Assembly (NCBI RefSeq): GCF_036405355.1
Contig: NZ_DASWXT010000068.1
Span: forward strand, 15,303-79,302
From: Daejeonella sp.
GTDB taxonomy: Bacteria > Bacteroidota > Bacteroidia > Sphingobacteriales > Sphingobacteriaceae
Direction: 5' to 3'
DNA: 64,000 nucleotides
Shown: in pieces, positions 60,531 through 63,208 of the stretch
How the letters are laid out: each line of letters starts with the position of its first letter
How positions within the stretch are numbered: the first letter of the stretch is position 1
The notes under the pieces: model-generated
What the model was told of the DNA's origin: nothing
The model's input: only the letters and a program-made list of their open reading frames with translations
The model's database searches: none
Position numbers and translations under genes: made by a program

Positions 60531-60596
60531 CCACAAACCTCCCGATAACAATCAGGAACTCTAAGCATCCCAATTACCATCGGGGTAGCAATAACC
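60531..60596 (-). pseudogene. Truncated, highly decayed tRNA-His copy (copy 3) with two palindrome insertions
   Basis: + strand CCACAAACC [TCCCGATAACAATCAGGA] ACTCTAAGCA [TCCCAATTACCATCGGGG] TAGCAATAACC aligns to the 5' half of the tRNA. Confidence 0.75.
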
Positions 60597-60597
60597 T

Positions 60598-60627
60598 AAA
60601 AAAGCCTTAGTTTTAACTAAGACCTTT
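60598..60627 (-). terminator. Hairpin/terminator after tRNA copy 2
   Basis: AAAGGTCTTAGT-TAAA-ACTAAGGCTTTT, T-run. Confidence 0.65.
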
Positions 60628-60634
60628 CTATTAA

Positions 60635-60752
60635 GGGTGGCTGATGGGGCTCGTCCCGATAGCTATCGGGACCACGACCCTTGGCACCACAAACCTCCCG
60701 ATAATTATCGCGAAATCTCACCATCCCTATAACTATCTGAAGAGCTACAGCC
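60635..60752 (-). pseudogene. Near full-length tRNA-His copy (copy 2) with three 18-bp palindrome insertions
   Basis: Collinear with the tRNA; inserts at 60654-60671, 60696-60713, 60724-60741. Confidence 0.92.
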
Positions 60753-60769
60753 TTAAAAATTCTTGGAAC

Positions 60770-60801
60770 AAAAAAAAAGCAGCTCATTTCTGAACTGCTT
60801 T
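60770..60801 (-). terminator. Terminator after tRNA-His
   Basis: AAAGCAGTTCA-GAAA-TGAGCTGCTTT-T run. Confidence 0.85.
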
Positions 60802-60809
60802 CCAAATCG

Positions 60810-60884
60810 GGTGGCTGATGGGGCTCGAACCCACGACCCTCGGCACCACAAACCAATACTCTAACCAACTGAGCTACAGCCACC
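60810..60884 (-). tRNA. tRNA-His (GTG), CCA not encoded
   Basis: G-1, acceptor GTGGCTG/CAGCCAC, D-arm GCTC..GAGT, loop TTGTGGT, T-loop TTCGAGC, C discriminator. Confidence 0.95.
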
Positions 60885-60896
60885 GTTTTATTTCTG

Positions 60897-60927
60897 CAAA
60901 ACTAAGCATTTCGGGAGATATTGCAAA
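60897..60927 (-). promoter_or_regulatory. Bacteroidetes sigma70 promoter of tRNA-His
   Basis: -33 TTTG (60924-27), 19-bp spacer, -7 TAGTTTTG (60897-904). Confidence 0.75.
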
Positions 60928-61108
60928 TTTTTTATATTAAATTTCAATACTGATAATCAGCATGATGGTGTTCCAGAACAGCTTTAAGCTCAGTTTAGCC
61001 CTAATCTAAACATGAGGTTCCTGTCATATTTAGAACATTATATTCTGAGCTTATACATTTAGCCTTCTTAAGTATTAAATTTGTATACAGCCTCTTAAAA
61101 GACATGTT

Positions 61109-63208
61109 ATGGAAAAAGAAGAATTGATTGAACTTCAGGTAAGCGGTATGCATTGCAATAACTGTGCGTTATCAGTCCATAAATTACTTGAAAAAAAGGG
61201 GCTGCAGGATATCTATGTTGATTTTGCGAACGATGAGGTAAAATTCAAAACCAGTAACCCTTCAGAAACTCCACTAATTATCAAGGATATCGAAGGTTTA
61301 GGTTATAAGGTAAGTGAGGAAAGTATCCCTATTCAGGAAAAATTCTTCGAAAAAGTGGAGAACAAATTCTATTTCAGCCTCATTTTTACTATTCCCCTCT
61401 TCTCACATATGTTTCTGCCTTTTCATTGGCTTCACAACCCTTTGGTTCAGTTAGGCTTATGTATTCCGGTTTATATTTTAGGATGTATTCATTTCGGCAA
61501 AAGTGCTTTCAATTCATTAAAGAATGGAATCCCAAATATGGATGTACTGATTTTTATCGGTTCGAGTGCAGCTTTTATTTATAGTTTGTATGGGACAGTT
61601 CAGAATTTGGGTCCTGATTTTTTGTTTTATGAGACTGCAGCAACCATTATTACCCTGGTGCTATTAGGAAATGTTTTAGAAAAGAGGTCTGTAACACAAA
61701 CCACATCAGCTGTAAGAGATCTGATGAAATTTCAGGAAGCAAAGGCAAATAAACTGCTCAATGGAGAAATAATAACAATAAACTCACAGGAAGTAGTCCC
61801 GGGGGATACACTGGTCATCAATTCAGGTGATAAAATTCCTGTGGATGGGGAAATCATCTGGGGTGAAGCCTCGGTTAATGAATCGATGCTTACCGGCGAG
61901 AGTCTGCCGGTAGAGAAGTCGAAATACGACAAGGTAATCGGTGGTACTTTGATTGAGAAGGGCAGCATCCACATCCTGGTAACTAAAACCGGAAAACATA
62001 CTATTTTATCCCAGATCATTGATCTGATGAAAAAGGCACAGTCGGCAAAACCGCCAATTCAGAAGCTTGGAGATCAGGTAGCTGCGATATTTGTGCCTGT
62101 AGTAGTTGGTATTGCTGTTCTAACTTTTGTTTTGGCCTATTATTCCTTCGATCTCAGCTTTCAAAAATCTATGCTGAATGCAATTGCTGTTCTGGTTATA
62201 TCCTGCCCCTGTGCTATGGGTTTAGCCACACCTACTGCAGTGATGGTTGGATTGGGCAGGGCGGCTAAAAATGGCATTCTAATCAAGGGTGGAAATACGC
62301 TTGAGGAGATAGCGAAGTTAAAATATATGGTCTTTGATAAAACAGGGACTCTCACAACCGGAAACTTCAAAATCAAAAAGATCGAGAGTATAAAGATTTC
62401 TCAGAAGAAAGCCGAATCGATTATTTATGGTATTGAGGCTTATTCAAATCATCCCATTGCACGATCCCTGGTTTCAGAACTTAGTGCAGGGAATCCTGAA
62501 AAAATAATATTCACGAAAGTATCAGAAGAAAAGGGCCTCGGAATGAGCGGAACTGATTCAGAGGGTAATACCTATCAATTCGGATCGAGACAAATCTTAA
62601 ATCCGGAAGAAGAACAGGGAAATTTTAGCCTTTTCCTTAAAATGAATGGAAGCCTCCTTGCGAAAATTGAAATTGAGGATGAAATTAAACCGGATGCACT
62701 GAAACTGATCGGCACCCTGAAATCTATGGGTATTCAGCCGGTTTTACTGAGCGGTGATCTGAAAAAGAAATGTGAAGATCTGGCTGCTATTTTAGGTATA
62801 GAGGAGGTATATGCCGAAACTCAGCCACATCAAAAGCTTGAGATCATTGAAAGGATTAAAAAAAGAGGTAAAACGGCAATGGTGGGCGATGGAATAAATG
62901 ATGGTCCCGCCTTAACCACTTCTGACGTCGGAATTTCAATGAGTGATTCCAGTCAGATCGCGATCCAGTCTGCTGAAGTGGTCCTGTTAAAGAATGAGCT
63001 CGGAGTTATCGATCAAATGTTAAGAATCGGGAAACATACCCTCTTAACGATTAAACAAAATCTGTTCTGGGCATTTTTCTACAATGTCGTGGCGATACCC
63101 GTAGCGGCATTTGGTTTTCTTAACCCAATGGTTGGAGCCTTAACAATGGCTTTTTCTGATGTCATTGTGATCGGTAATTCTATCCGCTTAAAAACTAAAT
63201 CACTATAA
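61109..63208 (+). CDS. copA: P1B-type heavy-metal (Cu+) ATPase
   Basis: GMHCNNC HMA, TGES, CPCAMGLATP, DKTGTLT, GDGINDG, YN..AIP, M..S. Confidence 0.88.
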   Translation: MEKEELIELQVSGMHCNNCALSVHKLLEKKGLQDIYVDFANDEVKFKTSNPSETPLIIKDIEGLGYKVSEESIPIQEKFFEKVENKFYFSLIFTIPLFSHMFLPFHWLHNPLVQLGLCIPVYILGCIHFGKSAFNSLKNGIPNMDVLIFIGSSAAFIYSLYGTVQNLGPDFLFYETAATIITLVLLGNVLEKRSVTQTTSAVRDLMKFQEAKANKLLNGEIITINSQEVVPGDTLVINSGDKIPVDGEIIWGEASVNESMLTGESLPVEKSKYDKVIGGTLIEKGSIHILVTKTGKHTILSQIIDLMKKAQSAKPPIQKLGDQVAAIFVPVVVGIAVLTFVLAYYSFDLSFQKSMLNAIAVLVISCPCAMGLATPTAVMVGLGRAAKNGILIKGGNTLEEIAKLKYMVFDKTGTLTTGNFKIKKIESIKISQKKAESIIYGIEAYSNHPIARSLVSELSAGNPEKIIFTKVSEEKGLGMSGTDSEGNTYQFGSRQILNPEEEQGNFSLFLKMNGSLLAKIEIEDEIKPDALKLIGTLKSMGIQPVLLSGDLKKKCEDLAAILGIEEVYAETQPHQKLEIIERIKKRGKTAMVGDGINDGPALTTSDVGISMSDSSQIAIQSAEVVLLKNELGVIDQMLRIGKHTLLTIKQNLFWAFFYNVVAIPVAAFGFLNPMVGALTMAFSDVIVIGNSIRLKTKSL

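Follow-up and report, generated by a model that had tools for sequence, protein, structure and literature searches.

Among the described systems closest to the locus examined here, an array of hairpin-disrupted tRNA-His copies in a 64,000-nucleotide (nt) stretch of Daejeonella sp. DNA (hereafter the window; assembly GCF_036405355.1, contig NZ_DASWXT010000068.1, positions 15,303 to 79,302), are the repetitive extragenic palindromic (REP) sequences, which are imperfect palindromes of 20-40 nt. The small dispersed repeats (SDRs) of Nostoc and related cyanobacteria, reportedly described by Elhai and colleagues in 2008, are said to be 21-27 nt long, partly hairpin-forming and precisely inserted, including into one another; to our knowledge they have no known enzyme, and we know of no report linking them to duplicates of transfer RNA (tRNA) genes or to a GIY-YIG nuclease gene. 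Archaeal tRNA genes may contain up to three short bulge-helix-bulge (BHB) inserts at non-canonical positions in their D, anticodon and T regions, which apparently have been transposed between sites and are spliced out to give a working tRNA; bacteria, as far as we know, lack a tRNA splicing endonuclease. Within a tRNA cluster of phage T4 is encoded the GIY-YIG endonuclease SegB, whose recognition site includes the TpsiC stem-loop motif (PMC2330249). In T6, SegB drives tandem segmental amplification of the tRNA-segB unit (PMC13096335), and the enzyme promotes the inheritance of itself and of flanking tRNA DNA (PMC2330249; PMC13096335). Prokaryotic Slx1-like and UPF0213 proteins, which also have a GIY-YIG domain, are regarded as putative DNA repair enzymes that are vertically inherited, whereas selfish GIY-YIG enzymes come from a UvrC-like lineage (PMC1564403).

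In the window, an intact tRNA-His gene is followed by two decaying copies of itself that carry variants of a single 18-bp palindrome, TCCCGATAGCTATCGGGA (hereafter P). This array is probably a relic, devoid of an open reading frame (ORF), of a family of selfish cassettes that is specific to Bacteroidota and whose very small members lie beside tRNA and transfer-messenger RNA (tmRNA) genes, a reading built on analogy with more complete loci. A full cassette would comprise, in one orientation, an intact tRNA, a gene for an Slx1/UPF0213-like GIY-YIG protein of ~94 amino acids (aa) and, beyond this gene, a partial or complete tRNA duplicate in which 3-4 nt of the D-loop, T arm, variable region or position 26-28 are replaced by P. 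The parts of this reading differ in strength: the array is very likely a member of the class of P-bearing tRNA fragments, it is likely, by architectural analogy, to be the relic of a nuclease cassette, and it is possible that the GIY-YIG nuclease inserts P. The cassette family is widespread in Bacteroidota and apparently undescribed; no description of P as a published element, or of the combined tRNA, GIY-YIG and hairpin architecture, was found in the literature, including by exact-sequence search, subscription literature not being covered.

The tRNA-His Array and Its Empty Counterparts

Across the 64 kb of the window there is a single tRNA, a tRNA-His with the anticodon GTG at positions 60809-60883 of the minus strand (ARAGORN; Rfam tRNA, 59 bits), which is the sole functional copy of the array and whose upstream region is orthologous to that of a relative (L128; loci used for comparison carry L numbers). 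The initial annotation, made from the letters alone, had recognised this gene but read it on the plus strand, its string being the reverse complement. Along the minus strand, a TAnnTTTG-type promoter motif is followed by the tRNA, terminator A (60774-60803, a hairpin and T-run), copy 2 (60635-60752), terminator B (60597-60630) and copy 3 (60531-60596), and the interval between the tRNA and copy 2 consists of just the terminator and 21 nt. A terminator scan returned both terminators on the minus strand, in agreement with the earlier statement that the tRNA and copy 2 have a terminator hairpin each.

Copy 2, on the minus strand like the tRNA, is a pseudo-tRNA-His that spans tRNA positions 3-76 and lacks the first two acceptor base pairs. 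The tRNA blocks that it keeps, which were also returned as the same blocks by a repeat search, are identical at 11 of 14, 8 of 10, 23 of 24 and 19 of 19 nt, and alignment confirms the proposal that tRNA triplets have been exchanged for variants of an 18-bp palindrome: each 18-mer takes the place of exactly three tRNA nt, namely AGT, ATT or GTT. A perfect P, found by mismatch scan and repeat search, stands in place of GTT (G53-T55) at the T stem-loop boundary (60654-60671; the palindromes are given without a strand). A variant with three mismatches, TCCCGATAATTATCGCGA, replaces ATT at tRNA positions 26-28 (60696-60713; mismatch scan), and one with four, TCCCTATAACTATCTGAA, replaces AGT in the D-loop (60724-60741; read by eye), the site at which P also stands in at least 120 other tRNA fragments of Bacteroidota. 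These are the three insertion sites that had been described. At up to three mismatches, the 64 kb contain three matches to the palindrome versus 0.02 expected, and all of them lie inside the array.

Copy 3, on the same strand and identified by repeat search and alignment, is the decayed 5' half of a tRNA-His, from the D arm to the anticodon. Its palindromes occupy the same two sites as in copy 2 and are, as had been noticed, more degraded: TCCCGATAACAATCAGGA, with three mismatches, replaces ATT (60540-60557; mismatch scan), and TCCCAATTACCATCGGGG, with five, replaces AGT in the D-loop (60568-60585; read by eye). Over a stretch of 79 nt that includes ~12 nt upstream of the pseudo-tRNA, copies 2 and 3 are 75% identical, and copy 3 therefore arose by duplication of a copy in which the interruptions were already present. 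Together, copies 2 and 3 hold five 18-bp P-type palindromes with 0 to 5 mismatches to TCCCGATAGCTATCGGGA. Since the T-arm P is perfect and the other four have 3-5 mismatches, the insertions took place at different times, and the perfect P at 60654-60671 is the youngest of them.

Neither copy is called as a tRNA by ARAGORN or Rfam, which answers the check with tRNA finders that had been proposed, and at E <= 10 Rfam matched the true tRNA alone at this locus. When the palindromes were excised in silico from all loci and ARAGORN was run again, a tRNA call was restored nowhere, since the copies are truncated and have lost loop nucleotides to P. The predicted RNA fold of copy 2 has three extra hairpins (z = -2.7); RNA sequence of the locus was sought in two metatranscriptomes from a study containing the organism, and none was found.

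The array is present in independent data. A separate Logan assembly (L121) is identical to the locus at 710 of 710 nt, and contigs from four separate studies span the array with 0-2 differences; several Logan contigs end inside the tRNA, as expected at a repeat. In another sample (run X26), a contig matches 60567-60687 and then diverges leftward, representing a strain variant without the distal half of copy 3.

Relatives of the organism, which is an uncultured Sphingobacteriaceae member, show the same site without the array. The copper P-type ATPase beside the array has 83% aa identity to its counterpart in the metagenome-assembled genome (MAG) CANKAT01 (L128), and this locus, L129 and the Mucilaginibacter locus L131 each have one tRNA-His, one terminator and no P, so that the comparison of empty and filled sites that had been suggested yields a presence/absence polymorphism at the same position. 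The promoter and upstream region of L128 matches the region upstream of the intact tRNA in the window, and its terminator is a hairpin nearly identical to terminator B, terminator A being missing there; therefore, the state in the window is a derived tandem duplication. Terminator B is the ancestral tRNA-His terminator, now standing after copy 2, and copy 2, at the ancestral 3' position, is the copy that was inactivated. The earlier proposal of a serially duplicated tRNA unit targeted by a tiny mobile hairpin is borne out by these empty relatives and by the recurrence of the same 18-mer in partial tRNA copies across Bacteroidota (see below).

The promoter motif upstream of the tRNA, TTAGTTTTGCA (60895-60905, minus strand, read from the sequence), lies ~12 nt from the gene and is a candidate Bacteroidota -7 element of the TAnnTTTG type by its match to the published Bacteroidetes consensus. 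It is kept in L128, and the same motif precedes the tRNA or tRNA fragment in an alignment of P-bearing loci (A2, see below). The neighbours of the array are an AraC-family regulator and the P-type ATPase, and the ORF list contains no integrase- or transposase-sized ORF next to it. A tRNA-His directly upstream of and divergent from a copper/heavy-metal P-type ATPase gene was also observed in ~25 Bacteroidota loci of several orders (L128-L168; window 60809-63208), and this arrangement is a conserved synteny in Bacteroidota.

Palindrome P in tRNA Fragments and Elsewhere in Bacteroidota

The distribution of P was determined by scans of a collection with one genome per species, the totals being lower bounds. 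The pattern TCCCGATANNTATCGGGA occurs in at least 120 loci, and among the matches listed 78 of 80 titles are Bacteroidota, of many orders. A second pattern, AGCTC-N(0,1)-P, which represents P in the D-loop of a partial tRNA copy, likewise gave at least 120 loci, with Bacteroidota in 79 of 80 titles among the matches listed; its 21 specified bases correspond to an estimated ~0.3 chance matches in the collection. ARAGORN was run on 60 of the loci with this second pattern. In 44 an intact tRNA lies on the same strand, 18-520 nt downstream of the fragment, three are arranged differently, and ARAGORN called no tRNA in the remaining 13, of which at least six lie at contig ends. Eleven isotypes are represented among the 44, which settles whether other tRNAs have such arrays.

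In the alignment of 26 such loci (A2), the promoter motif is followed by tRNA nt 1-13, P, GGT(T)AGAGC with a variable stretch of tRNA, a spacer and the intact tRNA, P standing in place of GTT, AGT or AGTT/AGCT. The junctions, which were read by eye, take three forms at one hotspot (CTCA[P]GGT, CTC[P]GGT and CTC[P]TGG), and therefore point to repeated independent insertion. The length of the duplicated tRNA segment varies, and the leader or promoter is sometimes included. A comparison of filled with intact copies gives an insertion signature in which 3-4 nt are replaced and no target site is duplicated, a rule seen in more than 30 loci that were read. The control was a search of the whole collection, all phyla included, for tandem D-arms that are spaced by 8-38 nt and lack P; 89 loci were found, and Bacteroidota account for 12 of the 80 titles shown. 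P-less duplicates being this rare, partial 5' tRNA duplicates in Bacteroidota nearly always carry P. L340 and L383 are orthologous to each other; their spacer has diverged, while both P and the fragment have been conserved. Rfam at the gathering threshold, applied to six related loci, matched the true tRNAs alone.

Two further observations concern these fragments. Tandem arrays of 2-4 P units are present, as in L379 (3859-4044) with its four perfect 54-nt units; L584 contains nine P copies ~50 nt apart and L040 at least seven 62-nt units, and L603 also has tandem P units. In a Vicingus MAG (L140, 300-680, minus strand), a tRNA-His has a 5' P-fragment in its leader, and a separate copy of the last ~18 nt of the tRNA-His lies ~100 nt downstream and resembles an integrase attachment (att) scar.

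In ~10% of P loci, P lies inside a partial tRNA copy that adjoins an intact tRNA of matching kind. Its settings, besides partial tRNA copies, are the tips of terminator-like hairpins, low-complexity "word" repeats, other repeat families and other P copies in which it is nested. The central dinucleotide is GC in 90 of 131 copies, and P is seldom preceded by T or followed by A. Nested copies replace 3 nt (CTA or GAT) of the outer P, by the same rule as in the tRNA fragments (L302, L312, L033, L293). Many solitary copies lie in the intergenic word repeats that occur in Bacteroidota, such as tcaagttcaagttcaag and gattagtgattagtg (L054, L079, L026, L115), and such repeats account for most of the direct repeats that flank P. 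Some copies lie within reading frames, where they are read as ..PIAIG.., as in a lipoprotein signal peptide (L032:3694), in the C-terminal tail of the nuclease of L380 and at L070:3632; the frame is kept because an 18-nt insert replaces 3 nt. About half of the palindrome matches in IMG/VR come from a single phage family, in which AAAAAA-TCCCGATATATATCGGGA-TTAATT, with TA at the centre, is a conserved intergenic sequence (for example L208, L209 and L211-L214); this is an orthologous, terminator-like site and not a set of independent insertions.

Several marks of conventional transposition were considered and rejected. Neither target-site duplication nor stem extension describes the flanks in general: both exceed the level in shuffled flank pairs, yet apply to only 3-8% of copies. 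Flanking direct repeats (24% versus 6%) are better explained by the location of P within pre-existing tandem or low-complexity repeats. The ORFs between pairs of P copies 1-4 kb apart are ordinary genes, which speaks against the ends of composite transposons, and a miniature inverted-repeat transposable element or other insertion sequence (IS)-derived element does not fit a unit that has no terminal inverted repeats with target-site duplication and replaces 3-4 nt.

A Small GIY-YIG Nuclease Gene Beside P

Gaps of ~325 nt or more between fragment and tRNA contain an ORF for a GIY-YIG protein of 94-96 aa in the orientation of the tRNA (L064, L358, L387, L354), and in L349 a decayed remnant of such an ORF lies in the gap. 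The suggestion of the initial annotation that a small nuclease might accompany such arrays thus holds for related loci, where the GIY-YIG ORF stands between the tRNA and the P-bearing copy, and fails for the window itself. The association is also recovered from the side of the protein. When homologues were picked by protein sequence alone, all seven had P within 100 nt and an adjacent tRNA. A larger sample consisted of 80 metagenome loci that were found with an alignment of one nuclease subfamily (A) and that cover the ORF with 600 nt on either side. The exact P core, CCCGATANNTATCGGG, occurs within 600 nt in 54 of these 80 loci, versus one of 169 control loci that are about six times longer, and the sole positive control (L140) is itself a tRNA-His fragment.

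An intact tRNA (54 loci) or tmRNA (5) is present in 59 of the 80 protein-selected loci, always on the strand of the ORF, and wherever both could be placed the ORF separates P from the intact tRNA. Two layouts occur. The first has the P-fragment, the ORF and then the tRNA, with P ~40-60 nt before the start codon; the second has the tRNA, usually with its terminator, followed by the ORF and the P-fragment, with P ~10-50 nt after the stop codon. Examples of the second layout are L534, L535, L541 and L558, which have a duplicated terminator and a P located in either the T arm or the variable region. Of the same kind is L380, in which a tRNA-Asn, a terminator and the GIY-YIG ORF are followed by a pseudo-tRNA of full length that hairpins interrupt at three places: P itself occupies the D-loop, and the anticodon stem and the T arm each contain a P-like TCCCG...CGGGA hairpin. 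This locus is the closest analogue of the window, which has the same layout minus the ORF. The tmRNA gene (ssrA) serves as partner, with the cassette upstream, in L598, L599, L609, L616 and L623. At L616, the 5' end of the tmRNA is duplicated over 35 nt, and this copy has P in place of AGT; at L598 and L599 a second P lies inside the called tmRNA gene. L558 and L379 exhibit tandem amplification comparable to that driven by SegB; in L558, a second copy of the start of the ORF follows the fragment (880-1016).

A second GIY-YIG subfamily (B; L139, P0121-P0194) has the same architecture at tRNA-His, tRNA-Ser and tRNA-Gly, with different hairpins: CCGAGRC..GYCTCGG, and TGCCGAC..GTCGGCA or GATGCTGAC..GTCAGCATC, whose stems differ by compensatory changes. 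The hairpin differs with the nuclease subfamily, which is an argument for a specific relation between each hairpin and its nuclease. Further hairpin variants are found in L039 and L380. In L542, two subfamily-B genes were seen in tandem; a tRNA 3' fragment comes after each of them, and the final fragment carries the subfamily-B hairpin.

The linked ORF matches the Pfam family PF01541 with E = 1e-9 to 1e-15, above the 22.6-bit cutoff, and residues Y5, Y16, G18, R26, H30 and E64 are invariant in both subfamilies. The AlphaFold model has a mean confidence (pLDDT) of 95.6; its best structural matches are the UPF0213 protein BH0048, the nuclease domain of Slx1 (probability 1.0, root-mean-square deviation 2.3-3.0 A over ~68 residues) and the catalytic domain of I-TevI, and the best sequence matches in the PDB are two UPF0213 proteins (1ZG2, 1YWL). 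The protein is therefore a GIY-YIG domain of minimal, Slx1-like type to which two short helices are added, and its retained residues and predicted fold make it look active. The family comprises 284 clusters at 50% identity (E <= 1e-10). Carriage of the nuclease by phages or plasmids was considered and rejected: tblastn gave no match in cultured phages or plasmids, and IMG/VR held no close relative.

Possible Origin of the Array and Alternative Explanations

Set against the complete cassette outlined above, the window has a spare tRNA copy in the same orientation as the intact gene and, at five sites, a P-type palindrome in place of 3 nt, and it has no GIY-YIG ORF. In the lineage of the window, the tRNA-His unit would have been duplicated in tandem; the spare copy would then have taken three palindromes at different times, two of them old and one, the perfect one, recent, and copy 3 would have arisen by a further duplication of part of this copy. 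The nuclease gene may since have been lost, or may never have been fixed at this locus. If SegB is a guide, the nuclease would cut tRNA-gene DNA at conserved loop motifs, and repair of the break would copy the cassette and yield tandem duplications. The palindromes would destroy those loop motifs in the spare copy and split its homology to the real gene into blocks of at most 24 nt (11, 10, 24 and 19 nt in copy 2), which may stabilise the arrangement against loss by recombination. P may also spread alone to other hairpin tips, acting as a miniature mobile element. The description of the locus as a possible relic integration hotspot, already offered in the initial annotation, is supported in this form, "relic" being used by architectural analogy for a window without the nuclease ORF.

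Several findings weigh against the derivation from a nuclease cassette. A tblastn search of the whole 64 kb with one subfamily-A query found no GIY-YIG ORF, and it is the lack of such an ORF between the tRNA and copy 2 for which the array is called a relic and not a complete member. Among the 80 nuclease loci, 26 have no exact P core, some being cut by contig ends and some possibly holding variants. About 90% of P copies lie outside tRNA-like DNA and have no subfamily-A GIY-YIG gene in a locus of ~8 kb (tblastn); therefore, P can spread or persist without a neighbouring nuclease gene. The replacement of 3-4 nt without duplication fits no known transposition chemistry, the 94-aa nuclease lacks the DNA-binding domain of classical GIY-YIG homing endonucleases, and the intact tRNA beside the cassette retains the presumed recognition motifs, yet survives.

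The alternative that survives these data best holds that P is an autonomous miniature mobile palindrome, inserted by a host or unlinked enzyme into dispensable hairpin-forming DNA, and that GIY-YIG genes merely share this niche; the tRNA-His copies would stem from ordinary tandem duplication and would then have been hit three or more times. Unlikely as it is overall, this explanation would account for the majority of P copies, which lie far from tRNA or GIY-YIG genes, at hairpin tips, in repeats or nested, for a window without a nuclease gene and for five palindromes that differ in age from 0 to 5 mismatches. It does not predict that the P core should be found in 54 of 80 nuclease loci against one of 169 controls, that the ORF should stand between P and the intact tRNA, or that another nuclease subfamily should go with another hairpin. 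Moreover, if duplication and insertion were independent, P-less partial tRNA duplicates would not be expected to be rare.

A less probable alternative is that the P-bearing fragments are functional RNA elements, that is, tRNA-mimicking leaders or trailers with a protein-binding hairpin that regulate the processing, stability or transcription of the neighbouring tRNA or ORF; the initial annotation had likewise considered a transcribed tRNA-like RNA with extra hairpins. Fragments on the 5' side lie between the TAnnTTTG motif and the tRNA and are thus expected to be transcribed as a leader, L340 and L383 keep P and the fragment while their spacers diverge, and copy 2 is predicted to fold stably (z = -2.7). 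A role as RNA is, however, hard to reconcile with a sporadic element that is missing in the closest relatives of the window organism, with the visible decay of copies 2 and 3 and with fragment extents that differ from locus to locus; in addition, it is the sequence of P that is conserved, not its pairing alone, and no Rfam family matches.

It is very improbable that the duplicates are attL/attR remnants of an integrase island or phage at tRNA-His, or that the palindromes are of the REP/RAYT or IS200/IS605 type. In favour of these origins, integration classically targets tRNA genes, REPs too are palindromes of short length outside genes, and L140 has a separate duplicate of the 3' end of its tRNA-His. 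Yet the array is adjoined by the AraC-family regulator and the P-type ATPase, and not by an ORF of integrase or transposase size; integrases duplicate the 3' ends of tRNAs, whereas copy 3, like most of the fragments at other loci, stems from the 5' part, and att-site duplication was rejected as a candidate on these grounds. Furthermore, P lies inside the repeated segment and not at its edge, carries no GTAG or CGTC tag, occurs at one locus in 64 kb, and replaces nucleotides instead of duplicating them. Finally, an assembly artefact or chance similarity, which the breaks of several Logan contigs inside the tRNA might suggest and which the initial annotation had named as a refuter, can be dismissed in view of the 710 of 710 nt found in an independent assembly, contigs from four studies, matches far above the shuffled expectation and the same architecture in hundreds of unrelated genomes.

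Beyond the origin of the array, it is tentatively proposed, as a rather doubtful extension of the cassette reading, that P and the 94-aa Slx1-like GIY-YIG protein constitute a new class of bacterial mobile element, in which this minimal, structure-specific nuclease would recognise its cognate hairpin and insert it, in exchange for 3-4 nt, into loop-forming DNA such as tRNA genes. If so, this element would be the source of the tRNA-side cassettes and of thousands of solo hairpins across the phylum, a GIY-YIG counterpart of REP/RAYT with a chemistry unlike that of known transposases.

Comparison with Known Systems

Hairpin-disrupted tRNA or tmRNA fragments beside intact genes are a phylum-wide feature of Bacteroidota that has been left unannotated: no Rfam family covers them, the fragments escape tRNA finders, and annotation gives the ORF just the generic label "GIY-YIG nuclease family protein". 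Assemblies from short reads break at tRNA genes where such arrays occur, and the arrays can be misread as pseudogenes of tRNAs or as scars of integration. They also bear on enzymology, since insertion or targeting of an 18-bp palindrome by a 94-aa protein, if it occurs, would be a new DNA-manipulation chemistry.

The likeness to UPF0213 proteins lies in the minimal GIY-YIG domain, which is without the C-terminal Asn and keeps the catalytic Tyr, Tyr, Arg, His and Glu. The members found here differ in that they behave genomically like a selfish element, so that a supposedly housekeeping Slx1/UPF0213 branch becomes linked to selfish behaviour, which would be new for that branch. The archaeal interrupted tRNA genes differ from the array in that the copies described here are truncated and decayed, and removal of the inserts regains no tRNA. 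SDRs are similarly tiny and precise, but belong to another phylum and have other sequences.

The closest organisational precedent is REP/REPIN-RAYT, with which the P loci share a dispersed palindrome, a small nuclease gene flanked by copies of it, and palindrome families that track enzyme subfamilies. The enzyme there is of the HUH type, whereas in the loci examined the gene flanked by P encodes a GIY-YIG protein and not a Y1/HUH one, and the REP tag is GTAG/CGTC, whereas P is a perfect 18-mer that starts with TCCC. P is further distinguished from REPs by being phylum-wide and not species-level, by its apparently few copies per genome, by its tie to tRNA fragments and by the replacement of 3-4 nt.

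SegB is the closest functional precedent, in that a GIY-YIG gene lies among tRNA genes and tRNA units are amplified in tandem; the loci described here thus offer a natural chromosomal case of nuclease-associated tandem tRNA duplication, parallel to the SegB-driven amplification recently shown in phages. SegB differs in belonging to the homing-endonuclease/UvrC lineage, in having a DNA-binding region beside its catalytic domain, for which the 94-aa protein has no separate counterpart, and in being phage-borne. Neither a palindrome nor hairpin-disrupted tRNA copies accompany SegB, whereas the 94-aa protein is encoded on Bacteroidota chromosomes beside both.

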